Positions 9,058-28,926 of a stretch of DNA of 36,083 bases are shown piece after piece. The notes under the pieces are model-generated. The model was not told the origin of the DNA and did not search any database. It saw only the letters and a program-made list of their open reading frames with translations. This DNA comes from Eubacteriales bacterium (GTDB taxonomy: Bacteria > Bacillota > Clostridia > Oscillospirales > CAG-272), in contig JAZSDJ010000047.1 in the NCBI GenBank assembly GCA_045531105.1, positions 1-36,083 of the forward strand, given 5' to 3'. Position 1 is the stretch's first letter. Every line of letters starts with the position of its first letter. Made by a program: the position numbers and the translations under genes.

Positions 9058-9748
9058 GCGTTAATTCTTTTTTGATGAATTGCGCACACGCGAACCCCCA
9101 AAACTCATTCTTCGTTTCGGGGAACCCCTGAGCGTTGGCGCATTAATTCTCGAACGCGTTGCGTTCTCCATAAATTCTCAAACACTGCGTGTTTTCCATG
9201 AATTCTCACGCACATTTCAGCAAACTTAATTGTTTAACTCCTTGTGCGTTCCATTGTATGAACGCTATTACACTTAGAATTAATTATTTTTTGCTGTATT
9301 AATAGACGCTATCAATATTTTTCTTATTTTGCTATTTTTAGAAAATAAATCTCTATAAATGTTGTCTGAAATATTTCCTGTTTCCTTTAAAATATCAAGC
9401 CAATACCCAGTTTCGTGATTTTCTTTTAATGTAATTTTTAATTTGTTACAAAAATCTGCCTTGCTACTTGCATAATTTGCTTCGTGAATATTCGCTCCTA
9501 TACTTGTTCCGCTCCTCATTAGTTGAACTGCGATACTTTTTATTTTATTGTTTTCTTGCAAATTTACTGATAAATTTAAAATATCTATTGCAAATTCCTT
9601 AGATAATTTTAATAAAATATTATCCTTCATTTTTTAATCCTTTTCTATCTAATATGGAGCGAGTGGAACGAGCGAGAATTCATGAGGCAACAGCCTTAAT
9701 TCACGAACGCTTGCGTTCAATTTATGGAGCAAAGCGAGAATTAATCAT
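9058..9748 (-). repeat. Composite intergenic repeat, copy C, interrupted by and carrying the four-helix-bundle ORF
   Basis: The left arm at 9058-9279 (gcgttaattc..gatgaattg..., core ...cattgtatgaacgctattacac) and the right arm at 9640-9748 (ctaatatggagcgagtggaacgagcgagaattcatgagg...) are collinear with copy B. ORF 9280-9630 replaces the 16-nt centre. Confidence 0.75.
9280..9630 (-). CDS. Four-helix-bundle protein (23S rRNA intervening-sequence protein / Avd-like family)
   Basis: 116-aa ORF with the family-typical QLMRSGTSIGANIHEA...ADF..KL.I..KE..ET.YWL pattern. Confidence 0.85.
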   Translation of the reverse strand: MKDNILLKLSKEFAIDILNLSVNLQENNKIKSIAVQLMRSGTSIGANIHEANYASSKADFCNKLKITLKENHETGYWLDILKETGNISDNIYRDLFSKNSKIRKILIASINTAKNN

Positions 9749-13132: not shown

Positions 13133-13268
13133 TTTTTACTCCTGTCTCTTACTTTTTCTTTGCTGAAAAGAAAAAGTAAGCAAAAAGAAAAGTTATAAAT
13201 TAATTTTCTATTATTTTAAAATTACTGCTAAACTAACACCAGTTTGCCACCCGAGGCGCTCGGGCGCG
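13133..13268 (-). repeat. Leader/spacer repeat module upstream of dnaA
   Basis: Near-identical to 10921-11050. The perfect 14-bp hairpin at 13148-13180 lies next to the SD (aggag). Confidence 0.8.
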
Positions 13269-13620: not shown

Positions 13621-13725
13621 TTTGTTTACCATTTTTCACTTGTTTTCTTTTTTGGTATCTTTTTTCTTCTACCAAAGAAAAAAGTACATATAAAAAAAGA
13701 CACTCTTGCGAGCATCTTTTTTAGT

Positions 13726-15277: not shown

Positions 15278-15345
15278 CTTACTTTTCTGTACTTTTTCTT
15301 TGCTGAAAAGAAAAAGTAAGCAAAAAGAAAAGTAATAAAATAACT
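15278..15345 (-). repeat. Partial leader module with the same hairpin, upstream of the FGGY kinase gene
   Basis: The string tactttttctttgctgaaaagaaaaagtaagcaaaaagaaaagt matches the dnaA and dnaN leaders. Confidence 0.7.
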
Positions 15346-15447
15346 ATATACTAAAATTTTGGTTAAAAGCCACTTATATTTTATCATATAAATAAAGGTA
15401 TTTCAAGAATAATAATATAAAGAAAAAATAAAAATTTAAAAAATATC

Positions 15448-15826: not shown

Positions 15827-15914
15827 GCAGGGGTATCGAAGCGGTCATAACGAGGCGGTCTTGAAAACCGTTTGGCCAAAAGCCACGTGGGTTCGAATCC
15901 CACCCCCTGCGCCA
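15827..15914 (+). tRNA. tRNA-Ser (anticodon UGA), CCA encoded
   Basis: The acceptor GCAGGGG pairs with CCCCTGC. The anticodon arm is GCGGT-CTTGAAA-ACCGT. There is a long variable arm, the T arm is GTGGG-TTCGAAT-CCCAC, and the discriminator is G followed by CCA. Confidence 0.92.
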
Positions 15915-15919
15915 AAAAT

Positions 15920-16195: not shown

Positions 16196-16210
16196 AATCC
16201 CACCCCCTGC
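16196..16210 (+). repeat. Direct repeat of the tRNA-Ser 3' end (att-like scar)
   Basis: aatcccaccccctgc at 16196-16210 is identical to 15896-15910, exactly 300 bp upstream. A shorter copy, gaatcccacc, lies at about 16130-16139. Confidence 0.6.
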
Positions 16211-16369
16211 ACAAAAAATCGCACAAAAAATAGGAATGTAAGTATAAATACATACCAAAATTTGAAAAATGGCAGTTTATTTATATGTTTTCTTTTTTGG
16301 TATCTTTTTCTTCTACCAAAGAAAAAAGTACAAAGGACACTCTTACGAGTGCCCTTTTTGGTTTAGAAA

Positions 16370-18199
16370 TTATTCGCCTTGGTTAAGGAACTTTTCGCCA
16401 TTTTTAACAATGAGCATTGAGTAAGTAACAGTAATTGTACCATCTTCCGCTTTGTTGGTGATTTCGAGCAAGAGTTGTTCAATATTACCATAAACATCGC
16501 CTTCGATAATATTTGTTACTTTTTCTGCTTTAAGAAGTTCAGTGCCGAGGTCATCATAGATAGCGATTGTCATAGACATATCACCTGATATCATCTTAGC
16601 AGCATCTATTGTTGACATGATGTAGTAGCCAGTGCCAGCGTCTGTAACCGCTGTAAATGTACCTTCTGTTGGTTGTTGTTCTGGAATTTCAGTACCGAGT
16701 TGAACTTCGTTATTTGCACCTTTCCAAAGGAAGAATTTAGTGCTTGTAACATTACCATCTGCATCTTTAACTTCTTCTTCCAAAATCAAGGAGTTGTTGA
16801 GAATAGCGTAAATTTCTCTGTTTTCAGGAACTGTGTAGATAAGATTATTTGTTGCGTCGTAAATTTCTTTTTCGTCAACAATCAACCAAAGGTTGTTTTG
16901 TTCAATATCGCCTTTGTGAATGAGAGAAATGATAACACCATTGTCATCAATGAAGTAAGAACCAAAATCGGTTGCCAAAACCTTCATACCATTTTGAGTT
17001 GTATAAATATTAACATCGTCGCCTTGTTTAAATGGGTCGAGATATTTAATAACATTGAGGTTTGCGTCAGTAGCAACGAGATTTGCTTTAAGAACGAGGT
17101 GGTGGCTTTCAATTACATAGTAAAAGAAAACATTTTTAAGGTCTGGGTTGAGACCGTAGCCGACGTATTTAGCGTATTCTTCATCAGATGGGTGAATAGC
17201 AGCGTTTTCGCAAGGAATAAATCCGTTATAAGGGAAATCGGTTTCTTCGCCTGTCAAAATGTTTGCTTTTGTCATTTTAACATTTGTTTTGTAGCCTTCG
17301 AAAAGAACATCATATTCTTGTGCATCATCTGGAAGAGAGATAAATTCAACATACAAAACTTCGTTATCGTTTATGAAGATGCAGTATTCTTCAACAGAAT
17401 TTAAATTTTCTTTAAACTCATAGTGTGAAACGACTTGGAGATTTTTGTCAACAATGATAAATTCGTCAACGAAACTATCATAGTAATCATAATAGATGAA
17501 AGAGTCGAGTTCTTCCACATAGAAGAGGTCTTCAAAATCAAAGTTAACTTTGTTAAAGTCAGCGAGTTCAGTAAGAGTTCCTTCATCATGATTTACAAGG
17601 TAAACCTTTTTCATAAATGACAAAAGATCTGAACTATTGTTTGTGTTAAATTCATAGTCGGCTTCCATTTTGTCTTCTACTTCTTCAGCGTCCACGCCTT
17701 TGTATTCAGCAACTGCAACGCCGAATTTGTTGTAGAGATAAACATCACCTTTTTCTGCGTCACCATAAATAGCGGCAACTACAAGGAAGTCCTCGTTTCC
17801 GTCGAGTTCAAAGTAAGAAACATCGGTGATAGTTGTTTTGTAAGCCTCATTTTCTTCTTCCATAAAAGGATTTGATGTAAGTGAGATTACAGTTGAGTTA
17901 TAAACATTAAAGAGTTTGTAAGTAATGCCTGTTGGGTTACCTTCTGCATCAGAAGTTCGAATCATTTGACCAAAGAAGTGGTCGTTAATTGTTTTTACTT
18001 GTTGGTCTTTGTCTGTGAGATCAACTTTTGTGATTGTGGTTTTGTCAACCTTATTATCAAGGAAGACAATGTTAGATAAAATGCTCTCTGTTGGAATAAC
18101 AACAGGTGGTGGTGGGGTTTCTTCGTCTTCACAGCCTATAAAAGCGAGAGAAAGAAGCATAACCAAGCAAAGAGCGAGAGCTAAAATTTTCTTTTTCAT
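16370..18199 (-). CDS. Large lipoprotein of unknown function (paralog 1)
   Basis: 609-aa ORF. The signal peptide ends ...LAFIGC and is followed by the Pro-rich linker ETPPPPVVIPTE. It is homologous to the neighbouring ORF. Confidence 0.8.
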   Translation of the reverse strand: MKKKILALALCLVMLLSLAFIGCEDEETPPPPVVIPTESILSNIVFLDNKVDKTTITKVDLTDKDQQVKTINDHFFGQMIRTSDAEGNPTGITYKLFNVYNSTVISLTSNPFMEEENEAYKTTITDVSYFELDGNEDFLVVAAIYGDAEKGDVYLYNKFGVAVAEYKGVDAEEVEDKMEADYEFNTNNSSDLLSFMKKVYLVNHDEGTLTELADFNKVNFDFEDLFYVEELDSFIYYDYYDSFVDEFIIVDKNLQVVSHYEFKENLNSVEEYCIFINDNEVLYVEFISLPDDAQEYDVLFEGYKTNVKMTKANILTGEETDFPYNGFIPCENAAIHPSDEEYAKYVGYGLNPDLKNVFFYYVIESHHLVLKANLVATDANLNVIKYLDPFKQGDDVNIYTTQNGMKVLATDFGSYFIDDNGVIISLIHKGDIEQNNLWLIVDEKEIYDATNNLIYTVPENREIYAILNNSLILEEEVKDADGNVTSTKFFLWKGANNEVQLGTEIPEQQPTEGTFTAVTDAGTGYYIMSTIDAAKMISGDMSMTIAIYDDLGTELLKAEKVTNIIEGDVYGNIEQLLLEITNKAEDGTITVTYSMLIVKNGEKFLNQGE

Positions 18200-18241: not shown

Positions 18242-19966
18242 TTAATAATTTGGATTTGCAAAGAATACATGATATTCAAGACAGCCAGTTGCCAATGAAG
18301 CGGCGCTGTCGAGGTAAAGAACAAAGCGATCACCATAAGATGAGAAATAATCGGATAGATAATTAACATTTTGAACTGTGTCAATAAGGTCGCCAGAGAG
18401 GTTGTAGAATTTATATGTGTAAGTTGAAGTGTCTTCTACAAATTCCTTTGTGTAGTAACCAAAATTGAAGAAGTTCAAGTTATTGTCGTTATAATCTACA
18501 TCATTACCAATGAGTTTTTCTGTATCTTTGCCAGTCCAAAGAACATAATTTTCCACTTGAAGTGTTTCTTCATCTTTCTCTTCTTCTGTAAAGAGAATGG
18601 AATTTGGATTAATTGAGTGGATTTTTCTGCCTGCATCGGCATAGTTGTAAATTACATTGAGACTTGTGTCGTAAATTGCCTTGTCGTCATAGAACCATTT
18701 TTCGTTGTAACGAATGTTCATTGGAAGGTCAGCAACCTTATTGCCAGACACGTCTACGATATAACGAGTGAATTGATTTTCATAGATTTTTGCGCCATTT
18801 TTAAGGGTTGAATAAAATCCGAGTTCGTCATAGTCGAAGAACTTAACTATTTCAAGGTTATCGTTCAAGCCGATAACATTCTTTTCGCGTACCCTTGCTC
18901 CGTTTTCTATTGAAAAACCATCAAAAATCAAGTTTGAAACTGTTGAATCAGTGAAACCTTTAACTTCGGAAACAGGAATGATTTCTCCAATATACTTCAA
19001 GTCAGGGATTTCTGTAAGAGAGTCGTCAGTTGGGTTATAAATGAAAGATGTAACGTTGGCTTTTTCTCCATACATGAATACTTCGTATTCAGTTGCGTCG
19101 TCTGCCAAAACATACACGTAAACAACTAAATAGTTGCCGTTGTTAAGACGGGAAATTTCAATGTCTCCGTTTTCAATCATATCAAATTTTTTTGTGAAAA
19201 TAAGGTCATACTCAGATGATAAAACAGTTATTTCACCATTTGAAATTTTTATATAAGTGCCAGTAACTTCGTTGTAGGTGAACTCTCTAAGAGCGTAAAT
19301 GTTAACATCTTTTTTGCTTGTGTCGACCAAAAGAGTTACTGTTTTGCGTAAACCATCTCTTTCAACTTTGAAAATCTTATCTCCAAAGGTGAGGTTGTAA
19401 AGAACACCATTATTTCCGTATGAATATGAAATGGAAATATATAAATCCTCTTGTTTGGATTCAGAAACTAACAAATTCATGTTTTGGTCAAAAAGGAAGT
19501 GGTCGTATGTACCATCTTCGCGTTCAAGCACGAGATGAGTGTTGTATTCTCCATAAAAATAAACATAAGATGAATTTATGTCGTAATCTACATAAATATC
19601 GTCTGCAAATACAGACTCACCAGAGATGTCTGTGTAGATGCTCCAACCATAGGACTCACCTGTCTGTGAGCAGTAAAGAACGAAATCTTGTGAATAGAAT
19701 TTAGACTCTACATCATAAATTTCATCTCCTATATAAAGGTATGTGCCGCCATACGAGCCAGATCTATTCAAAGAAGAAAGGTTGGTTGATGTTGTGTGTT
19801 GTGTGAATGGTTGTTCTTCTTGTTCGTCAAAAATAACAGGGAATTTCTCTGTCGGAATCACCACTGGCGCAGGTGGTGGCTCTTCGTCGTTGCCTTTACA
19901 GGAAACAAGAGCGAGAGATAATACCATAATTAAAACGAGCAAGAGAGAAAAAATTCTCTTTTTCAT
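18242..19966 (-). CDS. Large lipoprotein of unknown function (paralog 2)
   Basis: 574-aa ORF. The signal peptide has the lipobox LALVSC, then EEPPPAPVVIPTE. Its C-terminal region aligns with paralog 1. Confidence 0.8.
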   Translation of the reverse strand: MKKRIFSLLLVLIMVLSLALVSCKGNDEEPPPAPVVIPTEKFPVIFDEQEEQPFTQHTTSTNLSSLNRSGSYGGTYLYIGDEIYDVESKFYSQDFVLYCSQTGESYGWSIYTDISGESVFADDIYVDYDINSSYVYFYGEYNTHLVLEREDGTYDHFLFDQNMNLLVSESKQEDLYISISYSYGNNGVLYNLTFGDKIFKVERDGLRKTVTLLVDTSKKDVNIYALREFTYNEVTGTYIKISNGEITVLSSEYDLIFTKKFDMIENGDIEISRLNNGNYLVVYVYVLADDATEYEVFMYGEKANVTSFIYNPTDDSLTEIPDLKYIGEIIPVSEVKGFTDSTVSNLIFDGFSIENGARVREKNVIGLNDNLEIVKFFDYDELGFYSTLKNGAKIYENQFTRYIVDVSGNKVADLPMNIRYNEKWFYDDKAIYDTSLNVIYNYADAGRKIHSINPNSILFTEEEKDEETLQVENYVLWTGKDTEKLIGNDVDYNDNNLNFFNFGYYTKEFVEDTSTYTYKFYNLSGDLIDTVQNVNYLSDYFSSYGDRFVLYLDSAASLATGCLEYHVFFANPNY

Positions 19967-20452: not shown

Positions 20453-21358
20453 TTATTTTTTCTTATAAACATATTTTGGACGACTGTTTTTTGTTATAAG
20501 TCCCGCTGCGCGAGAAAAACCATCGTCGGTAAATTCCGAAAGGTAGGTTTTTATTATTTCGTACCCTGCTTCTTCCTCGTTTGTTAAGTAGTCGGAGTCA
20601 ATTTCGCGGGTTATTTGTTTGAGCAGTTTTTGTCTGTCGGCATCTGGGTTTTGAGCGATAAGAACTGAGAGCGCGTCATCAACTGCGAGAAACGCATTTG
20701 TAAGATAATCTGACACAACCATACCATTTGTGTCATTTTCGTCAAGCAACGCCATAACCTCTAAAAGTTCTTCTATTGCGATAGTGACATTTGACGAGGT
20801 GACTGAATTATAACCGAGTTTTCCGTCGTCAAGTGTGAGAACATGGAATCTTCTTTTCAAAATCCTGTTCATAAGAAGCGCTCCCTCTTTCGTGTCAAGT
20901 CCGAGAGAGTCTTTGTAGTTGTCGTTTATGTAGTTGTTGTCGTGAACTCTGAATTTGTTGTTGTAAAGTTCAATATAAATCTTCGGCACGGATTTAGTTG
21001 GCTTTGAAAGGTCGAGAATGTACGCGTTTTCACCATTTGAGGTGATTTTACCACCAAAAGAGATAGAAAGTTCCTTCAAAATATTAACTTCTTGTTGTTG
21101 AAGTTCTTCGGGTGAAAATCTACGCCCACTTAACCACCTTTCAAACGCCGAAGTCTTTGCCTCTGTGATAGTTTTAAGGGGTGTTTGATACTTATATGTC
21201 ACGCCATCTTCGGAGATTGATGCCTTCTCTTGCTTTTCGAGTTTTTTTACAAACTCTCTTGCTTCCATATAAGAAAGGTCAAAATCTTTTTGCAAAGATG
21301 CGACGGAAAAAGAACCTTTTTCTTCAAGAGATTTATAAATTTCAGGGTATTTACTCAT
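20453..21358 (-). CDS. Protein with an N-terminal FtsK-gamma-like winged-helix domain; the rest is uncharacterised
   Basis: FSVASLQKDFDLSYMEAREFVKKLEKQ resembles the FtsK gamma motif (S.S.LQR.F.IGY.RA.R..D.LE). The preferred start MSKYPE (ATG at 21358) overlaps the upstream stop as ATGAGTAA. Confidence 0.6.
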   Translation of the reverse strand: MSKYPEIYKSLEEKGSFSVASLQKDFDLSYMEAREFVKKLEKQEKASISEDGVTYKYQTPLKTITEAKTSAFERWLSGRRFSPEELQQQEVNILKELSISFGGKITSNGENAYILDLSKPTKSVPKIYIELYNNKFRVHDNNYINDNYKDSLGLDTKEGALLMNRILKRRFHVLTLDDGKLGYNSVTSSNVTIAIEELLEVMALLDENDTNGMVVSDYLTNAFLAVDDALSVLIAQNPDADRQKLLKQITREIDSDYLTNEEEAGYEIIKTYLSEFTDDGFSRAAGLITKNSRPKYVYKKK

Positions 21359-23033
21359 CGTCATCATTCCTTTCGGTGACTTGATATACATATCGTCTGT
21401 CGTAAGGATTTATTTTCGACTTGTATTCTTTATCGTTTTTCTTTTCAATATCGTGGAACTCTGGACACATATACGAGCGTTCGAGTTTCGACCAGAAAGC
21501 GTATGGCTTATTAAGTTCGATAATTACACACTCCCCAGCCTTAAAACTTGAAAGGTCGGTTCTTGTAACAACAGGAATTGTTTCGAGTTCAAAACGAGAA
21601 AGTTCTGCGTCATTACCACTCAAAACTGATTTTGGAGAAAGGCGTGTATATTCGCCACATTCAGCCTGAAAACGAGTGAGAGTGTCTGGGTTGTTGCTTC
21701 CTAAAAAGATTTTGATATTGAGGTTATCTCTTATAATTTCAGCAGTGTTTTTGCCGTAGATGTTGTCAAGTTGTGAATACGACTGCAAAATACAGTAGAA
21801 GAAAATGTTTCTTCCACGGGCCGCGGTTATCGCTGTGTCAAAGTCGGTGATAGGTGGGAAGTTACCAAATTCGTCAAGCATGAAGTAAAACGGGGTGTCA
21901 AGTTTTGACTTTTCGCTCTTGTTTGCAACTTCGATAAGATACTTATACGCATTTTGAACAAAAAGGCTGATAAGTTGGTAATGTGTCTTAATTTCGTCTT
22001 GATAGCAGATGAAAACTGCCACTTTTCCACCAAGAAGTTCGGAAAAATCGAAGGAATTACAACTTGTTATGGTTTGAATTGTTATATTTCTAAAAATAGA
22101 AAGTTTTGTTTGGAAAACGGAAGTATAGGAACTTCTTGTAACCTTTGAGCAGTCCATCGCTGTACGCGAGAGCATAAATGCGTTGCTACTTCTGTCGCGA
22201 TTTTCAAAATAACCATTGTCAACATCAGAGTCGCCCATAGGGTCAAATGTTGCAAAAATGCGGAAGAGTGTGCGAAGTGAGAATGTGTCCTCGGTGATTG
22301 TCGCCTCTTTTTTGCCTCTTGGTCTACTGTCTTCGAGCATAGCCCACAAAAACGCTTTAAGAAGGTCGAGTGCGCCACTGTCCCAACTTCGGTCCTTTGG
22401 ATTGTCAAAGGTTATCATCATTGACGCGAGTTCGTCAATCATATTTCCGACTTTGCTCATCTCTGTGTCGAAAATTATATTGACATCGTTGTCAAGGTCA
22501 GTTTGATTTTCGTAAATTCTGCCCCTGAACATATTGCGAGGACCTTTTGGAGTGTCTATTACTTCTATTTTGTCATAGATTTTGAAAACCTCGTGATATG
22601 CCCTATAAATAGGGGTGAGAGGGTTCCAAAATTCACTGTGTTCAGGGTCACGGAAGTTGAGAAGATAAACACTGTACCCCTCATCTTCAAGCGTTTTCGC
22701 TGTCTTTTTATAAATTTCACCCTTTGGGTCGGAGATAACAAAACTTTTCTTTGTCTGTTGCTTTGCAAAAGAAAGAACGGTAGGAATTACGCAAGAGGTC
22801 GTTTTACCACCACCTGTCGCTGAAATTATAAGCGCATGTGATGCGTAATCGGAATAAATTTGCATAAGTTTGCCATTAATATATTGATTCGAGAGCAAAA
22901 TACCGTCTATTGTGAGATTAGGCAAATCGTCATAAGCCACCATTTTTGGCAAAGTGGACACAGGGTCGTCATATCTTTTGAGTTCTTTGCTTTCGTAGCC
23001 TTGCAAAAGGCTTTTGTTGCTGAAAATGTTCAT
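21351..23033 (-). CDS. VirD4/TraG/TraD-family (T4SS coupling-protein-type) ATPase lacking N-terminal transmembrane helices
   Basis: Walker A ISATGGGKTTSCVIPTVL, then SDPKGE, FWNPL, the Walker B FYFMLDEFGNFPPI and RGRNIFFYCILQSYSQLDNIYG. The Walker A starts near residue 73, and the preceding 70 residues contain no hydrophobic segment. Confidence 0.85.
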   Translation of the reverse strand: MNIFSNKSLLQGYESKELKRYDDPVSTLPKMVAYDDLPNLTIDGILLSNQYINGKLMQIYSDYASHALIISATGGGKTTSCVIPTVLSFAKQQTKKSFVISDPKGEIYKKTAKTLEDEGYSVYLLNFRDPEHSEFWNPLTPIYRAYHEVFKIYDKIEVIDTPKGPRNMFRGRIYENQTDLDNDVNIIFDTEMSKVGNMIDELASMMITFDNPKDRSWDSGALDLLKAFLWAMLEDSRPRGKKEATITEDTFSLRTLFRIFATFDPMGDSDVDNGYFENRDRSSNAFMLSRTAMDCSKVTRSSYTSVFQTKLSIFRNITIQTITSCNSFDFSELLGGKVAVFICYQDEIKTHYQLISLFVQNAYKYLIEVANKSEKSKLDTPFYFMLDEFGNFPPITDFDTAITAARGRNIFFYCILQSYSQLDNIYGKNTAEIIRDNLNIKIFLGSNNPDTLTRFQAECGEYTRLSPKSVLSGNDAELSRFELETIPVVTRTDLSSFKAGECVIIELNKPYAFWSKLERSYMCPEFHDIEKKNDKEYKSKINPYDRRYVYQVTERNDDDE

Positions 23034-23050: not shown

Positions 23051-24643
23051 TTAAAATCCAAGTTTGGTGCGTTTATCTTTTACGCTTTGTACGAGTTGGT
23101 CAACCATTTGTTTTGTAATCACCTTGCCAGAGCCTTTACCCTTAAATGAATAGATAAGTTTATCAAGAGCAAGGGCAACTTCCATAAATGTCTTAAAGCC
23201 CTCTTTGAGAGAGTCTTTTGCCTCTTTCTCTATTGAGAGGTCGGAAATTCCGTACTCTATGCTCTTTCTCAAAAGAAGTTTGTCAATAAGGGCATCTTTT
23301 TCGCTTTCTTCGATTGCTGATGCATCTATACAGTCGCAAAGGTGTCTTATGTATTTAAGGCAAGCGGTGTCACAAATGCAGATTGGCAACACGCTTGAAA
23401 GATTGAGAGTAATTCCTGGCATAACGAGTCGGAAATCATCTCTGTTTGTGTCTTTTAAAAATCTTGACAAAAGTTCAACTACTCCAAAATCGGCAACTCC
23501 TCTTAATACGATAAGAACGAGATTTTTCTTGCCCTCGTCAATATCGCGAACAAGGACATGGTTTTTGTCAAGATTGAAATCATTTCTGCCAAGCGCGCGA
23601 GCGTCAATGTCGATTATATTTGCATCAGGGAATGCGTGCGCGATAGTTTCCATATAGTCAAGCGCTACAAAATCGTCGTTTGTCACAATACAGGGCGAGA
23701 GGGCATTTGTTTCGCTCGCATAAAGAATACTTTGAATAACGCTGTTTTTCTCGGTGTCTCTTTCAAGAAGTCCACCAAGAGTGTCGCATTTTGCAACAAG
23801 GGGTACGCGTTTGAGCGCGAGAGGCAAGTCGTTTACTTCACCTACAATGTTTTTATTGTTCAAGACAAGGCGAATTTTGTCACCCTCGTCAAGAATTTCG
23901 CTGTATGCAATTCTTGAAACTTGTGGCGAGTAAATTTGAGGTTTTACAATGTTCAATCCGATTGCTTGCTCGATAAGTTCTGCCTCGTTTGAAGGAGCGA
24001 CATTTGTAAATCCGTAAAAGAGTTTCGCACTTTCAAAAATCGCCTCGAATGGAGTTCCGTTTGACACCGAATAAAGGCGAGAAATGTTCTGCGCCCTTGT
24101 GTCCTCGTCGTATGCGAGCATTGCAAGAATTGCATCAGGGTCATTCCATTTTGCACAGCGATTTATAAGGCGAAGACCGCTTTCTTTGTCCTCTCCTGTG
24201 AAAAGTCCAAGCACTTGCATAATGCCAAGGCATCGCATCGCTTCGATAATTCCACATTGAGATGCGTTTGTAAGGAATGAATAGGTCGCAGGCTTTGTCG
24301 CGTCGAGAATTGCATTGTAGCCCGCCTCTTTGAGCGCTGTTATCGCTCTGCCCTTTATGTTTGCGACGATTGTTTCAAGGTTTCCTTTGTCACCGTTTGA
24401 AAGGCGCAAAAACTCTTGTATTCTTTTGTGAAGATTGTAATCGCTTTCGCATTTTATCGCGCTGACTGTGTCGAGTTTTGTGAGTGCGAAAAGGTCGTCT
24501 CTTTCCTGCTCATCGACAAAGAAAATGTCGCACATAGATGCGAAAAGTCGTGAGATTTCTTCGTTTCCAACAAAATCCCCGATAAGTAATTCAATTTTGA
24601 AAAACGACGCAAGGCATCTTTCTTGTAAAGTTGTAAGTTTCAT
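23051..24643 (-). CDS. Uncharacterised 530-aa protein: a Sel1-like repeat plus a C-terminal degenerate Lon-like AAA+ module
   Basis: AMRCLGIMQVLGLFTGEDKESGLRLINRCAKWNDPDAILAMLAY fits the Sel1 repeat pattern. LLSRFLKDTNRDDFRLVMPGITLNLSSVLPICICDT...SEKDALIDKLLLRK parallels the Lon AAA+ region (LLEVLD..F.D....DLS.V.F..T.N...EK..I....L), but no GxxGxGKT or hhhhDE motif is present. Confidence 0.5.
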   Translation of the reverse strand: MKLTTLQERCLASFFKIELLIGDFVGNEEISRLFASMCDIFFVDEQERDDLFALTKLDTVSAIKCESDYNLHKRIQEFLRLSNGDKGNLETIVANIKGRAITALKEAGYNAILDATKPATYSFLTNASQCGIIEAMRCLGIMQVLGLFTGEDKESGLRLINRCAKWNDPDAILAMLAYDEDTRAQNISRLYSVSNGTPFEAIFESAKLFYGFTNVAPSNEAELIEQAIGLNIVKPQIYSPQVSRIAYSEILDEGDKIRLVLNNKNIVGEVNDLPLALKRVPLVAKCDTLGGLLERDTEKNSVIQSILYASETNALSPCIVTNDDFVALDYMETIAHAFPDANIIDIDARALGRNDFNLDKNHVLVRDIDEGKKNLVLIVLRGVADFGVVELLSRFLKDTNRDDFRLVMPGITLNLSSVLPICICDTACLKYIRHLCDCIDASAIEESEKDALIDKLLLRKSIEYGISDLSIEKEAKDSLKEGFKTFMEVALALDKLIYSFKGKGSGKVITKQMVDQLVQSVKDKRTKLGF

Positions 24644-24671: not shown

Positions 24672-24983
24672 TTATCGTTCGGTTGCAAGCGCCGGTATAA
24701 ATTTTTTGATTTTATCTATAATAGTTTGCTTTTCTAATTTATCTATCTTGGTCGTCAAAGAACAGTAGCCCTCGGCTTTTTCGACCTTGAATAAGTAAGC
24801 CACCGACGAAAAAGAATTGCCAAAAGGCTTTAAAAGACAATAAATGTCCTCGTCTTTCTTTATCGTCGCAAGTTGCTTGTAATGGCGCAACTCTCCGTTT
24901 TTGTCTTCGAGTGGCAATAGTCGCTTGTTTTCTTTGTCTAAAAGAATTGAAATTAAATCCGTTTTTGAAATGTCATAGTCCAC
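24672..24983 (-). CDS. Small DUF1292-like protein
   Basis: 103-aa ORF with a GTG start and GAGGTG upstream. The pattern LEDKNGELRHYKQLATIKKDEDIYCLLKP...YLFKVEK resembles DUF1292/UPF0473. Confidence 0.5.
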   Translation of the reverse strand: MDYDISKTDLISILLDKENKRLLPLEDKNGELRHYKQLATIKKDEDIYCLLKPFGNSFSSVAYLFKVEKAEGYCSLTTKIDKLEKQTIIDKIKKFIPALATER

Positions 24984-25087: not shown

Positions 25088-25801
25088 TTAATCATACACT
25101 TCCGGTATCTCTATTCCCTCTTTGCGAAGTTTTTCGCGAATGGCGTCCATTTCTCTTTTGGAAACGAGAACAAAGTCCTTTTCTTTGTCGGGCTTTCTTC
25201 GCATTGCAAAAAACGCAAACACGAGGTCTGTCTTTGAGCGAGTCAAACGATAGAATTGATGCTCTAAAAGTTCGCTCGTTTCGTCAAAGTTCAAGCGAAG
25301 TCCTACCGAAAGTTGCAAAAGTGCAATTCGGGGCGCTTGCGAGTATCGCTCGTTATATTGATTTAAAAGTTTATGAAAGGTGCGTCTGCCAAGACCGACA
25401 GGCTTCCACACATCAGAGGGCTTATCAATTCCCTTTTCTCTCATAAAGCGATAAATGAGTTCCTGTAAGGTTACGAACTTTTCGCTATAATACTTCAAAA
25501 CGAAATCGTCAACCCCACCAATTAGGTTTATAACATCTTCGTCTTTGAGGATTATCTCGATATCTTCGGCTTTTGCGTTGGCTAAAAAGTTCACCAAAAC
25601 AGGCTCCATCTCGGAGAAAAATTTCTCGTCTGGTAAAAACGCATTGAGGCTATTGTCAAGCATATTTATAAGCGCCAAAAGTCGCTCTTTCACGGGTGAG
25701 GGTTCGCATCTGTCGTGCATACTTCTCATAAGCGAAAGCGCCTCTTTCGCCTCTTTAACTCCTCTGACCCTTCTCTTCAAAGGCTTGAAATCAAATTCCA
25801 T
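25088..25801 (-). CDS. Putative XRE-like HTH transcriptional regulator with an uncharacterised N-terminal domain
   Basis: The C-terminal half, TLQELIYRFMREKGIDKPSDVWKPVGLGRRTFHKLLN....PRIALLQLSVGLRLNFDETSELLE, has the Cro/C1-like helix-turn-helix pattern common in Firmicutes. Confidence 0.55.
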   Translation of the reverse strand: MEFDFKPLKRRVRGVKEAKEALSLMRSMHDRCEPSPVKERLLALINMLDNSLNAFLPDEKFFSEMEPVLVNFLANAKAEDIEIILKDEDVINLIGGVDDFVLKYYSEKFVTLQELIYRFMREKGIDKPSDVWKPVGLGRRTFHKLLNQYNERYSQAPRIALLQLSVGLRLNFDETSELLEHQFYRLTRSKTDLVFAFFAMRRKPDKEKDFVLVSKREMDAIREKLRKEGIEIPEVYD

Positions 25802-26572: not shown

Positions 26573-27433
26573 ATGAAAAAGGAAGGGAAAAAGAAAGAGA
26601 AAATGAACATTTACTACCAAAAACCGATTGAAAAAAGCGAAAATGAGCAAATTTTCTCGGTTGAAATCAGCAAGATAAGGGCAAATCCCAACCAACCACG
26701 CAAGGTTTTTGCTGATGAGGCGATACTGAAATTGGCAGATAGCATTCGCCAATATGGTATAATTCAGCCATTATGCGTGAGAAAAACGGGCGAAAGTTAC
26801 GAACTTGTGTCAGGAGAACGCAGATTAAGAGCGGCAAAAGAACTCGGAATGAGCGCTGTTCCGTGCGTGATACTTGATATAAACGAGGTAAAAAGCGCCG
26901 AAATTTCAATAATTGAAAACATAATTCGAGAAAATTTGAACATTTTCGAGCAAGCGAGCGCGATAGAAACACTTATTGATACATATGGTCTGACACAAGA
27001 ACAAATAGCGAAAAAATTGTCAAATAGCCAGTCCTTTATCGCAAACAAGTTGAGATTGTTGCGCTTATCGAGCGAAGAAAGGCAAAAAATACTTGAAAAC
27101 AACCTTACAGAGCGACACGCAAGGGCGCTTTTGCGTATATTAGACCCTTCTCTGCGTGAAAAAACGCTCAGTAAAATCATAGAAGAAGGGTTAAATGTGA
27201 CTAAAAGTGAGGAGTTTATCGATCAACTGCTCGCAAATGAGCCGAAAAAGACAAGGGGTCGCTCGTCTTCCTTAAAAGACACTCGTTCGTTTTTTGCATC
27301 AATAGATAGGCTTGTAAATACTATAAGAATGTCTGGCGTTGAAGTAAAAAGTAGGGTTATAGAGAGTGACGAGTTCACGGAAGTCACTATTTTAGTGCCA
27401 AATGTGGCAGATACCTCTCCGAAAAGCGAATAA
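26573..27433 (+). CDS. ParB/Noc-family protein (noc-like paralog upstream of soj-spo0J)
   Basis: ParB N-terminal box NPNQPRK, IIQPLCVR, the CTPase motif GERRLRAA and an HTH (LTQEQIAKKLSNSQSFIANKLRLL). The start codon is uncertain (26573 or 26603). Confidence 0.85.
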   Translation: MKKEGKKKEKMNIYYQKPIEKSENEQIFSVEISKIRANPNQPRKVFADEAILKLADSIRQYGIIQPLCVRKTGESYELVSGERRLRAAKELGMSAVPCVILDINEVKSAEISIIENIIRENLNIFEQASAIETLIDTYGLTQEQIAKKLSNSQSFIANKLRLLRLSSEERQKILENNLTERHARALLRILDPSLREKTLSKIIEEGLNVTKSEEFIDQLLANEPKKTRGRSSSLKDTRSFFASIDRLVNTIRMSGVEVKSRVIESDEFTEVTILVPNVADTSPKSE

Positions 27434-27518
27434 AATGCGAAAAATACGCACAAAGCCCTAAAAATGGTGAGAAAAATCGCCAAAAAGAGAGGAAACGAGC
27501 AAAAACAACTAAAAAGAA

Positions 27519-27534
27519 TGTTTCACGTGAAACA
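27519..27534. promoter_or_regulatory. parS site (TGTTTCACGTGAAACA, perfect palindrome)
   Basis: Exact match to the Firmicute parS consensus TGTTNCACGTGAAACA. Confidence 0.9.
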
Positions 27535-27591
27535 TATGCCCCCCTTCTCGTCGTTGCGTTTTCGCCCAGAGAAGAAACGAGGTCGCAAAAA

Positions 27592-27607
27592 TGTTCCACG
27601 TGAAACA
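27592..27607. promoter_or_regulatory. parS site (TGTTCCACGTGAAACA)
   Basis: Matches the parS consensus, differing only at the degenerate position. Confidence 0.88.
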
Positions 27608-27632
27608 AAAGTTACCACATAATTCACTCAAA

Positions 27633-27648
27633 TGTTTCACGTGAAACA
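27633..27648. promoter_or_regulatory. parS site (TGTTTCACGTGAAACA)
   Basis: Exact palindromic parS. Confidence 0.9.
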
Positions 27649-27672
27649 AAAATACGACTGGTTTTGGGCGAA

Positions 27673-27688
27673 TGTTTCACGTGAAACA
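27673..27688. promoter_or_regulatory. parS site (TGTTTCACGTGAAACA)
   Basis: Exact palindromic parS. Confidence 0.9.
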
Positions 27689-27713
27689 GCGCAATTTTGC
27701 GAAAAATAAACAA

Positions 27714-28063: not shown

Positions 28064-28926
28064 CCCGTAAAAGACAGAAAAAGAAATAAAAAAGATTTAT
28101 GTGCCAAAATTTTATAAAAAGCGAAAATCTTTTGTTTTAGTGGATTATTAAACGCCCTTGCGTCTGATTTTATAATGAATTTTTATGATTAAAAGGAGAA
28201 GTGGTTGATTGAATTTTATTATTTTTAGGGTTTAAAACAGAATTTGTTAAATTTTTTCGTTTATTTTTTTTGTTATGATTAAGTGATATGATTGCAAATA
28301 AAACGCAGAAAATAGTTAAGAAAAAAGATTTTAAAAAGAAATTTAAAAGCAAATTTGATATCTTTTCCGCATTTTTTAACAAAAAATCTGTAAAAAATGA
28401 AAACGGGAAGTGCATGTATGAGTTTTTGGGCTGAAAATTTTTTGAAAAATACATTTTTGGTGCTATTTTTTCGCTTTTTGGCACATTTTTGCGACGATTG
28501 GCGCAGGAAATGGAATTTGCATCAGGATTTTGGTGTTGGAATTTGAAAATTATAGCCATTTTTACCTTTAACAGTTCTCCTCTCGGTTTTGAGGGTTGAA
28601 TTTTGCTACTCTGATGCCTTGCTTTTGTTGGCAAATAAGATACGAATAATTTCAAAGTGTAAAAGGAGCAATAGCGAAGAAAGTATGCGCTTTTGAGTAA
28701 ATAACACGGATTTTTGGGCGAAAAGAACAGTTTTTAAAGAAAATTAGTTAGCAAACTAACTAAAATCAATAAAATTTGCGAAAAAACGGCAAGAATTGAT
28801 TAGGAAACTAACTAAATTGCAAAGAGAGCGGATTTTGAGGTTGAAAGAAACCATTATTTTATTGACAAGCAGAAAAAGAAGTGGAGAAAAAGAAACAAAA
28901 TAAAAAAGATAATAGAATTGTTTCTA

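Follow-up and report, generated by a model that had tools for sequence, protein, structure and literature searches.

Introduction

What does a VirD4-type coupling protein do when it has neither a membrane anchor nor a secretion channel in its vicinity? This question is raised by a gene in the 36,083 nucleotides of DNA analysed here (the window), whose product, named VirD4L in this report, had been predicted from the sequence alone to be a VirD4/TraG-family ATPase devoid of the N-terminal transmembrane (TM) domain and to act as an active cytoplasmic NTPase outside secretion. Coupling proteins are regarded as an obligate component of T4SSs and serve as marker genes for conjugative elements, for example in ICE/IME detection pipelines. 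The absence of a TM domain alone proves little, since TMD-less coupling proteins are a recognised subfamily that works in conjugation via a small membrane protein, as documented for TraJ and TraI of pIP501, TraJ being, like VirD4L, a naturally TM-less VirD4-family ATPase (PMC7434980, PMC12857230). The reasoning of the original prediction, which combined the lacking TM domain with intact catalytic motifs, is thus not sufficient. TraJ is, however, encoded inside a tra operon and relies on the adjacent small 2-TM protein TraI, and the cassette harboring VirD4L has neither.

Results

VirD4L: Family, Fold and Catalytic Motifs

The predicted family membership was confirmed by Pfam matches of VirD4L to PF02534 (T4SS-DNA_transf; 5.1e-52, 177.7 bits at a gathering cut-off of 20.1), PF12696 (TraG-D_C; 4e-25, 88.6 bits, cut-off 22) and PF10412 (TrwB_AAD_bind; 7.9e-17, 61.6 bits, cut-off 20.5); T4CP families were the best matches, and Pfam gave no match to an FtsK_SpoIIIE-type motor domain. 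The AF2 model (pLDDT 81.5, pTM 0.81) was most similar in Foldseek to Cag-beta/VirD4 (8dol, 1.9e-17) and TrwB-deltaN70 (1e9s, ~1e-14 (8e-15)), with a probability of 1.00, and HerA-SIR2 and HerA-DUF4297 structures were also among the fold matches (1e-8 to 4e-7). With VirD4, TrwB and Cag-beta, VirD4L shares the NTPase family, the fold including superposition on the soluble domains, the Walker A, DPKGE, Walker B and QSxxQL motifs and the all-alpha insertion; it differs from them in lacking the N-terminal TM domain, beginning about where the engineered TrwB-deltaN70 begins.

The catalytic motifs, claimed to be intact, are conserved in 23 homologues with identities down to 48% (Table 1): T73, G76, K77 and T78 of Walker A are invariant, as are R408 and Q417, S418, Y419, Q421 and L422 of the QSYSQL box. 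Only the start of Walker A, placed near residue 73, had to be corrected to residue 72 on the basis of the translation. Relative to an orthologue of 91% identity, VirD4L has a dN/dS of 0.039. Catalytic competence is inferred from the invariant motifs and this dN/dS value, activity data being unavailable; as to expression, the sequence of the VirD4L locus was found only in DNA metagenomes, without RNA data.

Table 1. Positions of the cassette genes, their neighbors and their motifs in the window.
Feature	Position	Strand	Remarks
FtsK-gamma-like winged-helix protein	20453..21391	(-)	downstream of VirD4L; winged helix at residues 17-68 (21188-21343)
VirD4L, VirD4/TraG-family P-loop NTPase	21351..23033	(-)	560 aa; no TM anchor
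VirD4L R408 + QSYSQL box	21768..21812	(-)	residues 408-422; QSYSQL 417-422 (21768-21785)
VirD4L Walker B, DEFGN	21861..21875	(-)	residues 387-391; invariant, 23 sequences
VirD4L DPKGE	22716..22730	(-)	residues 102-106; all five invariant, 23 sequences
VirD4L Walker A, ATGGGKTT	22797..22820	(-)	residues 72-79 (translation)
Partner protein	23051..24643	(-)	530 aa; directly upstream of VirD4L
Partner C-terminal L-G-F	23054..23062	(-)	residues 528-530; candidate ClpP-docking motif, no binding data
Partner, site of the expected AAA+ P-loop	23663..23707	(-)	NALSPCIVTNDDFVA; no GxxGxGK[ST]
Accessory protein	24672..24983	(-)	103 aa; recurrent neighbor, DUF1292-like relation
Protein at the head of the gene string	25088..25801	(-)	237 aa; weak C-terminal Cro/C1-type HTH (HTH_26, 0.012)

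Absence of a Membrane Anchor

In line with the prediction, no TM segment was found in VirD4L, where the highest Kyte-Doolittle mean over 19 residues, 0.99, falls on the P-loop strand. As controls, 79 more distant homologues showed in the same scan the two N-terminal helices expected of them, and a plasmid CD1115-family protein likewise showed two TM helices. In the TM-bearing relatives with their two helices, Walker A lies at residues ~140–155, versus residue 72 onwards in VirD4L. An upstream extension is not possible, as stops occur in frame just upstream and the open reading frame is already the longest one. The preceding gene ends 17 nt before the VirD4L ATG, the latter being preceded by AAGGAAAGGAG, and the homologues begin at the same position. 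A split TM gene was likewise rejected, given the in-frame stops and an upstream gene that encodes a soluble partner. Neither was there a small TM-anchor ORF beside the cassette, since hydrophobic ORFs inside it occur in antisense only, leaving no credible TM ORF in the window cassette. Across the related loci, no conserved adjacent membrane protein emerged: most hydrophobic flags represent buried segments of ClpP or AAA+ cores, and membrane neighbors are merely sporadic, such as a 2-TM YetF-like protein downstream in 3 loci.

A Large TM-Less Clade

More than 1800 VirD4L homologues were retrieved from the protein collection, the best 120 of which all measure ~550–576 aa, so the TM-less form of ~560 aa is far beyond chance. 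Among species-representative genomes there were at least 564 matching stretches, mostly from gut Christensenellales-type Clostridia. In a tree of 145 representatives (neighbor joining without bootstrap, 50% clustering), the TM-less relatives group together in one clade (61 members), to which none of the 79 TM-bearing ones belongs. The question, raised with the prediction, whether TM-less versions form a clade with a conserved neighborhood was thereby answered in the affirmative, the clade being accompanied by the cassette described below; the full-length architecture of ~560 aa is common to more than 100 close clusters and 61 representatives.

Relatives on plasmids reach ~28% identity at best and are annotated as NF045973 (VirD4-like conjugal transfer protein, CD1115 family), which is also the best curated family for VirD4L itself, at 241.7 bits and below the 250-bit cut-off. 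The NF045973 member of the C. difficile plasmid pCd5_2 differs, however, in its 729 aa with two TM helices, in adjoining a conjugation membrane protein of the pLS20_p028 type, for which VirD4L has no counterpart, and in its position in the tree, outside the TM-less clade. Prophage or satellite origin was considered and rejected, as there was no PHROG match except for a generic ClpP fold and relatives from phage records show only 22–28% identity.

The Partner Protein and Its Nucleotide-Binding Site

The protein encoded directly upstream of VirD4L matched nothing in Pfam, NCBIfam, PADLOC or PHROG. Its N-terminal half is helical and contains Sel1 repeats; an AAA+ fold of the Lon-like type, lacking a P-loop, and a flexible C-terminal tail follow. 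Its profile matched Sel1 repeats (1e-10) and Lon AAA+ (6e-6) among PDB sequences, and its AF2 model (pLDDT 89.5) gave LonA/LONP1 as the top Foldseek matches, followed by RuvB and ClpB. In 75 of 84 loci, the partner gene immediately precedes the ATPase gene in the same orientation, the two being separated by a short junction or overlapping, frequently in their reading frames. The dN/dS of the partner is 0.070. It is missing from about 9 of the 84 loci, some of which have unrelated genes upstream. The idea of a divergent partner at such loci was abandoned, the upstream proteins in two of them (L048 and L005) being unrelated according to hhalign. A search with the partner profile returned the same 14 proteins only, and no homologue was matched on plasmids.

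At the expected P-loop site of the partner model, a strand (residues 316–320) and a helix (324–337) are present, but a Walker A motif at the AAA+ position is lacking in all 51 aligned family members. The window copy is also devoid of the Walker B acidic pair, the position reading LVLIVLRG. Lacking both, the partner should be unable to power unfolding, and VirD4L is the sole intact NTPase of the cassette. A second feature, present in 47 of 51 partners, is the motif [Y/I/F/L/M]-G-F, usually followed by GG; it lies no more than ~15 residues from the C-terminus and is set in otherwise variable sequence. This hydrophobic-Gly-Phe tripeptide we take to resemble the IGF loop of ClpX, and it is a candidate for the [L/I/V]-G-[F/L]-type surface tripeptide through which ClpX, ClpA and ClpC dock onto ClpP. 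None of the 14 aligned sequences deviates at G529 or F530, and the tail is modeled at low confidence (pLDDT below 50 at residues 525–530).

ClpP, FtsK-Gamma and Head-of-String Genes

A divergent ClpP paralogue precedes the partner gene in 41 loci and is absent from about half of all loci. Its triad motifs are at least 90% conserved, and it is nearer to cellular ClpP (188–209 bits) than to phage prohead protease (85–89 bits). The window itself has no such ClpP gene, so its ClpP link rests on a three-residue motif. With ClpXP/ClpAP and Lon, the cassette has in common an AAA+ fold of the Lon type, in a protein that adjoins a triad-intact ClpP paralogue and ends in a tripeptide that may correspond to the ClpX IGF loop; it departs from them in that the AAA+ domain of the partner lacks a P-loop (51 of 51 aligned members).

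The FtsK-gamma-like protein downstream of VirD4L likely starts at ATG 21358, which gives it an 8-nt overlap with the ATPase stop; an orthologue (locus L092), called at 303 aa, has an overlapping start as well. The direct Pfam FtsK_gamma match of the window protein is weak (0.0016). Another orthologue (locus L005) reached 5.4e-12, and an HMM derived from the genes that follow the ATPase at related loci recognised 38 of 56 downstream genes, among them the window protein at 2.3e-17. In P0121, P0128, P0142, P0191 and L073, the gamma module is fused to the C-terminus of the ATPase. Like FtsK/SpoIIIE, with which it shares the ASCE FtsK-HerA superfamily, the cassette combines a motor with a gamma winged helix, either encoded downstream or fused C-terminally. 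Unlike in FtsK/SpoIIIE, the motor is of the VirD4 type, there is no membrane domain, and the gamma module mostly resides in a protein of its own, the C-terminal part of which varies.

Whether two further upstream genes belong to the system is uncertain. The 103-aa protein falls into a cluster (c9) present in 10 loci including the window, one member of which (locus L036) matched DUF1292 weakly (2.6e-4). For the 237-aa protein, tblastn matches were obtained upstream of the cassette in 5 loci, and it is syntenic in L092 with a dN/dS of 0.105; it is a possible regulator.

Genomic Setting

Around ~90 related loci, seen over only ±8–10 kb each, no T4SS, relaxase, integrase or VirB4 genes recur, and the 36-kb window contains neither T4SS (VirB4, channel) nor relaxase genes. 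When 98 large flanking proteins were screened, no family matched more than 3 of them and no T4SS family was among the 25 families listed. The Pfam-annotated contexts and the recurrent small clusters around the cassette agree with this negative result. Given the limited distance seen, T4SS genes elsewhere in the host genomes are not excluded. The flanks comprise housekeeping genes (dnaA, S10 operon, transporters), and the position near dnaA is syntenic among relatives with 66–91% identical ATPases. In the window, as in the sub-lineage to which it belongs, dnaA/oriC adjoins the cassette, and parAB and a parS cluster are nearby. Closeness to the origin was rejected as a trait of the cassette at large, no origin marker being found within 8 kb at ~80 other loci; cassettes occupy variable chromosomal positions, sometimes adjoining R-M, TIR or AbiEii-type genes. 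A tRNA-Ser with a repeated 3' end, located ~5 kb away, was dismissed as an island boundary, as its two copies, separated by only 300 nt, do not flank the cassette.

It is mainly this context that supports a role of VirD4L outside secretion, as originally proposed: no T4SS, relaxase or integrase gene recurs and no adjacent membrane protein is conserved, the operon is conserved and non-conjugative, and the TM-less proteins form a single clade with a conserved neighborhood. That the NTPase is active remains an inference from the motifs and the dN/dS of 0.039. Assignment to a known defence system was rejected, the only PADLOC-DB v2 hit being a weak one of the ATPase to mad8 (2.1e-11), with no match for the partner, the gamma protein or the neighbors; for mad8, the MADS preprint offers no information on domains. 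In the literature, we found no description of a VirD4-ClpP-Sel1-FtsK cassette or of a VirD4-like defence system.

Discussion

The findings point to the cassette being an undescribed cytoplasmic DNA-directed machine, in which the VirD4-type protein is linked to a pseudo-AAA+ partner, ClpP and an FtsK-gamma protein, and not, as VirD4, TrwB and Cag-beta are, to VirB4, a relaxase and a T4SS. We favor, with somewhat better than even confidence, the reading that VirD4L is a soluble, DNA-targeted motor coupled to ClpP proteolysis and no longer serving a T4SS channel. The conserved chromosomal cassette has the order [ClpP paralogue]–pseudo-AAA+/Sel1 partner–VirD4-like ATPase (the core)–FtsK-gamma winged-helix protein. 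The gamma winged helix, downstream or fused, may direct the motor to DNA, resulting in an FtsK-like 'motor + gamma' arrangement; here the architecture is observed and DNA binding inferred. Judging from family membership and the intact motifs, the ATPase would, as a hexamer, hydrolyse NTP and translocate along or pull DNA or nucleoprotein, similar to coupling proteins handling relaxase-DNA. The partner, presumed to be translationally coupled to the ATPase and unable to bind nucleotide, could form an adaptor ring or scaffold whose Sel1 repeats bind a protein and whose hydrophobic-Gly-Phe tail docks ClpP in the manner of the ClpX IGF loop; fold, P-loop loss, motif and ClpP adjacency were established, the docking is inferred. 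The net effect might be ATP-dependent DNA-associated proteolysis or DNA-triggered recruitment of ClpP. Having retained the terminal LGF without a cassette ClpP, the sub-lineage of the window would presumably depend on a ClpP from another locus. For this cassette, the ATPase activity and the binding of DNA are inferred, and so are proteolysis and any physical interaction.

We know of no precedent for a VirD4-type motor feeding a protease. By analogy, the anti-phage complexes HerA-SIR2 and HerA-DUF4297 may serve as precedent for FtsK-HerA-superfamily ATPases assembling with effectors: there, too, a soluble hexamer of this superfamily is encoded beside its effector and assembles with it, although VirD4L belongs to the VirD4 and not the HerA family and the putative effector, ClpP, would be reached through an adaptor. 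Leading candidates for the role of the cassette are defence against incoming mobile DNA, in which pilot, relaxase or terminal proteins would be degraded, and the clearance of proteins bound or linked to DNA; anti-mobile-element defence versus a housekeeping role is unresolved. A more elaborate scheme, speculative and on the whole unlikely, would be a new ATP-dependent proteolytic or immune machine powered by the VirD4-type motor instead of an AAA+ unfoldase: loaded onto DNA by the gamma winged helix, the motor would capture protein-capped or protein-bound DNA (relaxase-ssDNA, terminal-protein-DNA) and thread the protein through the nucleotide-free Lon-like adaptor ring into ClpP.

The same proteins could also be read without proteolysis. 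A soluble FtsK/SpoIIIE-like translocase acting in segregation, dimer resolution or origin-region handling, with partner and ClpP only loosely linked, would account for the motor plus gamma architecture including the fusions, for the location close to dnaA/oriC, parAB and the parS cluster that the window shares with its sub-lineage, and for a retention that looks stable and vertical under strong purifying selection. We nonetheless consider it improbable, as origin proximity is not shared by any of the ~80 other loci within 8 kb, linkage is tightest for the partner (75 of 84 loci) and exceeds that of the gamma protein, and the motor, without an FtsK_SpoIIIE Pfam match, is clearly of the VirD4 type. 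It can further be asked whether VirD4L acts in trans as a TM-less T4CP for a T4SS elsewhere, partner and gamma protein being relaxosome-type accessory factors. Its closest curated family, NF045973, is after all a conjugal-transfer one, the activity of TM-less T4CPs in conjugation is documented (PMC7434980, PMC12857230), IMEs of Firmicutes can encode only a relaxase and a coupling protein (PMC12084326), the YetF-like 2-TM protein occurs at 3 loci, and context was seen for no more than 8–10 kb on either side. Yet ~90 loci lack a nearby relaxase, integrase, VirB4 or conserved small membrane protein; the flanks are housekeeping genes, with dnaA-near synteny persisting at 66–91% ATPase identity; the partner has no plasmid homologue; and neither the candidate ClpP-type docking motif nor an adjacent ClpP has a role in known relaxosomes. 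Together with the two TM helices and conjugation neighbors of a genuine CD1115-family member, this renders the in-trans explanation quite improbable to our minds.

Finally, the absence of T4SS genes nearby and the tRNA-Ser with its repeated 3' end ~5 kb away could suggest a decaying ICE remnant, that is, an N-terminally truncated coupling-protein gene without current function. This is barely tenable and effectively refuted by selection and conservation: dN/dS is 0.039 with invariant catalytic motifs, the full-length ~560-aa architecture and the operon partners are conserved, and the cassette is not enclosed by the tRNA repeat.

What emerges is a large clade of VirD4-like proteins without membrane anchor and T4SS link, placed in a different conserved operon. 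TM-less VirD4-like genes will be mis-annotated as conjugal-transfer genes, inflating estimates of mobile elements in gut MAGs. Should the scheme of a motor delivering DNA-attached proteins to ClpP hold true, the native substrate recognition of a coupling protein would have been redirected as a weapon to conjugative or phage DNA, or put to use in clearing DNA-protein adducts. That an intact VirD4 motor is found together with a nucleotide-dead Lon-like adaptor, a ClpP paralogue and an FtsK-gamma module suggests a link, so far unrecognised, between DNA translocation and regulated proteolysis.

Results

A VirD4-type ATPase without a membrane anchor

The ATPase gene is a real open reading frame (ORF), and sequence, motifs and fold all place its product in the VirD4/TraG NTPase superfamily. 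Pfam matches comprised T4SS-DNA_transf (PF02534, 5.1e-52), TraG-D_C (PF12696, 4e-25) and TrwB_AAD_bind (PF10412, 7.9e-17), and the AlphaFold2 model (pLDDT 81.5, pTM 0.81) had its best structural matches in H. pylori Cag-beta/VirD4 (1.9e-17) and TrwB-deltaN70 (about 1e-14), in both cases the soluble domain, with HerA translocases and DotL further down among the fold matches. The original prediction that the catalytic motifs are intact was borne out: all those it quoted were recovered by translating the coordinates, and the five listed in the table do not vary across 23 aligned homologues with identities down to 48%.

The inferred lack of an N-terminal transmembrane (TM) domain was likewise supported. 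Over the whole protein, the peak 19-residue Kyte-Doolittle mean was 0.99, at the P-loop strand; as positive controls, the scan detected two N-terminal helices in more distant homologues (Walker A at about 140–155) and also in a plasmid CD1115-family protein. An upstream in-frame extension supplying a TM segment is excluded, as the ORF is already maximal and in-frame stops precede its start. A gap of 17 nt separates the upstream gene from the ATPase ATG, which has a good Shine-Dalgarno sequence, and homologues start at the same residue in the alignment. The best 120 of more than 1800 homologues all measure about 550–576 aa at a query coverage of 94–100%, and the short N-terminus is therefore a family trait. 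In a midpoint-rooted neighbor-joining tree of 145 representatives (without bootstrap), the ATPase falls into a clade of 61 sequences devoid of TM segments, which holds 61 of the 66 TM-less sequences, while all 79 TM-bearing ones lie outside. TM-less versions thus form a clade, and one with a conserved neighbourhood, the pattern for which a phylogenetic check had originally been proposed.

Gene order at related loci

At least 564 stretches in species-representative genomes match, most of them gut MAGs under the name Christensenellaceae/Christensenella or “Clostridia bacterium”; 80 loci were taken from such genomes and 13 contigs were added via exact-protein matches. In 75 of 84 loci the gene for the partner, a protein of 530 aa in the window, immediately precedes that for the ATPase in the same orientation, often with overlapping reading frames; the wider flanks are completely different between loci. 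Clustering of neighbouring ORFs without preselection yielded the recurrent order Xre-type HTH or small DUF1292-like protein, ClpP paralogue (in the cassette at 41 loci; Pfam ClpP, 1.6e-54), partner, ATPase and a protein of about 250–460 aa with an FtsK_gamma domain (5.4e-12). Screening of 98 large flanking proteins gave 153 families, none matching more than 3 proteins; the 25 flanking families listed were housekeeping or miscellaneous, and none was a T4SS family. No small membrane anchor is conserved near the cassette across the loci.

Other recurrent small clusters comprised a YgjP/WLM-type peptidase, a HAD domain protein, a GDSL lipase, a metallophosphoesterase and a YetF membrane protein. 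The latter (YetF/DUF421, 2 TM), the only recurrent membrane neighbour of the cassette, replaces the gamma protein downstream of the ATPase at three loci (L017, 9732–10529; L021; L026). The YgjP-like/WLM-type metallopeptidase (PF01863, 1.1e-36; WLM, 8e-6) recurs near the cassette at 3 loci (e.g., L041, 10881–11579); WLM/SprT-type enzymes are DNA-protein-crosslink proteases, and this neighbour may bear on the idea of DNA-linked proteolysis. A few genes from the cassette, a CDC48/FtsH-like classic AAA ATPase (PF00004, 4e-31; weak similarity to the anti-phage ATPase IteA) was seen at about 12 loci, as were large BspA-type LRR_5 proteins, also at about 12 (clusters c7 and c8; L004, L022, L026, L050, L057, L065 and others). 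Right after the full-length ATPase gene, loci L066 and L069–L072 carry a second, short ORF (~170–187 aa) that groups with the VirD4-like family; the ATPase gene may have been duplicated in part, or its C-terminal end may have been split off. One MAG (JAIDCZ01) has two ATPase copies, one in a full cassette (L017), the other (L005) with unrelated upstream genes and a gamma protein downstream. In the close relative L090 (16934–21593), where the cassette lies by dnaA, the genes that come after it look like a defence island, with PARG-like, D12 and N6/N4 methyltransferase and HinfI-type members.

Partner and gamma proteins

The partner had no match in Pfam, NCBIfam, PADLOC or PHROGs, and no plasmid homologue was found. 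A 51-sequence profile matched Sel1-repeat proteins (1e-10, about residues 100–176) and part of the Lon AAA+ module (6e-6, positions 397–524). In the confident AF2 model (pLDDT 89.5, pTM 0.76), the N-terminal half is helical and leads into an alpha/beta domain with a helical lid; Foldseek ranked LonA/LONP1 first, then RuvB and ClpB. In all 51 sequences RPLCxxSDSEY, a short turn, stands in place of the P-loop (in the window, NALSPCIVTNDDF), and the Walker B position of the window's protein reads LVLIVLRG; the partner is therefore a pseudo-AAA+ protein. Its flexible C-terminal tail bears a conserved hydrophobic-Gly-Phe motif (47/51), usually YGFGG or IGFGG. Clp ATPases dock to ClpP through a tripeptide of this kind, [L/I/V]-G-[F/L], as in the IGF loop of ClpX; docking of the partner by the same route, here inferred, would explain mechanistically why a ClpP gene lies next to it. 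In the ClpPs of the cassettes, the motifs of the Ser, His and Asp triad are conserved at ≥90%; these proteins score as divergent cellular-type ClpP (188–209 bits, under housekeeping cut-offs of 249–309), with only 85–89 bits for phage prohead protease models. The window's sub-lineage lacks this ClpP and retains the terminal LGF of the partner (...KLGF in the window).

An HMM built on the N-terminal winged helix of the downstream genes at related loci matched the window's gamma protein (residues 17–68, 2.3e-17) and 38 of 56 same-strand downstream genes. This module is fused to the ATPase C-terminus in the homologue P0121 (residues 586–633, 2.3e-12) and also in P0128, P0142, P0191 and L073, reproducing the “motor + gamma” layout of FtsK. 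By the Rosetta-stone argument, the fusions are evidence for a joint function of motor and winged helix.

Genomic setting and selection

The window is a chromosomal origin region without T4SS, relaxase or integrase genes. In its sub-lineage the cassette stays by dnaA with varying orientations and spacings; in other lineages it occupies unrelated sites, e.g., upstream of the S10 operon, and origin proximity is therefore local synteny and no rule. Against the syntenic orthologues of the related locus L092, dN/dS ratios are only approximate because dS exceeds 1; both the gamma protein and the 103-aa protein have changed far more rapidly than the ATPase.

Features of the window, with dN/dS and amino acid identity relative to L092
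Feature	Position	Strand	dN/dS	Identity (%)	Remark
recA, gyrA, gyrB, recF, dnaN, dnaA		minus			
23S rRNA intervening-sequence protein gene	9280–9630				between dnaN and recF; PF05635, 3.7e-22; also in L090
FGGY kinase gene					after dnaA
tRNA-Ser(tga)	15827–15914	plus			after dnaA
Lipoprotein-type paralogues, tandem	16370–18199; 18242–19966				between tRNA-Ser and cassette
Gamma protein	20453–21391	minus	not computable (dS saturated)	53.8	
ATPase	21351–23033	minus	0.039	90.9	560 aa
Walker A, ATGGGKTT	residues 72–79				
DPKGE	residues 102–106				
Walker B, DEFGN	residues 387–391				
Arginine motif	R408				
QSYSQL	residues 417–422				
Partner	23051–24643	minus	0.070	85.5	
103-aa protein	24672–24983	minus	0.290	54.4	
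237-aa HTH protein	25088–25801	minus	0.105	79.3	
noc/parB-like gene	26573–27433				beyond cassette, divergent
parS-like repeats (four)	27516, 27589, 27630, 27670				within 27516–27691
ORF	28170–28655				
parA, parB					beyond cassette, divergent
49-nt repeat pair	13394; 13490				oriC-like region upstream of dnaA
64-nt repeat	13150–13213; 15290–15353				91% identity
45-nt repeat	13644–13688; 16288–16332				82% identity
tRNA-Ser 3' end and copy	15896–15919; 16196–16219				92% identity, 300 nt downstream

The four 22-nt palindromic repeats, AAATGTT(T/C)CACGTGAAACAAAA, match the parS consensus TGTTnCACGTGAAACA and form a tight cluster between the noc/parB-like gene and the following ORF, upstream of parA-parB. 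The repeated tRNA-Ser 3' end may go back to an integrated element since lost, as a remnant of its att site; the pair does not bracket the cassette. The 64- and 45-nt repeats flank the FGGY-kinase gene and tRNA-Ser, between dnaA and the lipoprotein genes. The lipoprotein-type proteins (~600 aa each, signal peptides L-x-x-C) had no Pfam, NCBIfam, PADLOC or PHROG match and are fast-evolving, with 49% identity to the L092 orthologue versus 91% for the ATPase.

Discussion

Lack of a TM domain alone is no proof of repurposing, since coupling proteins without one work in conjugation, and genomic context therefore has to decide. The “T4CP lacking TMD” subfamily is recognised in reviews, and pIP501 TraJ functions in conjugation via the adjacent small membrane protein TraI (PMC7434980; PMC12857230); Firmicutes IMEs can moreover carry their own coupling protein (PMC12084326). 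The ATPase, however, lacks a TraI-type anchor, and it has neither the TM anchor nor, over the flanks covered, the T4SS linkage of functional coupling proteins. With 241.7 bits it remains below the cut-off of 250 for its nearest curated family, the CD1115 family (NF045973), whose genuine members, unlike the ATPase, are TM-anchored and linked to conjugation genes. The original view thus stands, on the strength of context and not of the missing TM domain alone: the protein is an intact VirD4-family NTPase of the cytoplasm that does not belong to a secretion system.

Our data establish the family, fold and clade of the ATPase and its loss of the TM anchor. They equally establish that the operon is conserved, that the partner lacks a P-loop and carries the Gly-Phe motif, that a ClpP gene adjoins it at 41 loci, and that a gamma module accompanies the ATPase or is fused to it. 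They best support a model in which a soluble VirD4-type motor is targeted to DNA and cooperates with a Lon-like adaptor that binds no nucleotide and recruits ClpP. Here, the ATPase would form a hexamer and be loaded onto DNA, and the partner would dock to ClpP; these steps, like any substrate of the machine, are inferred. A literature search found no published description of the cassette; that it constitutes a categorically new protease or immune machine powered by a VirD4-type motor appears to us an unlikely but real possibility. As to its role, defence against mobile elements would fit with the occasional R-M, TIR, AbiEii-like ATPase and CDC48-like AAA neighbours and with the structural kinship of the ATPase to HerA-effector defence complexes. 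A housekeeping function would fit just as well with the stable vertical inheritance of the cassette and the strong purifying selection on it.
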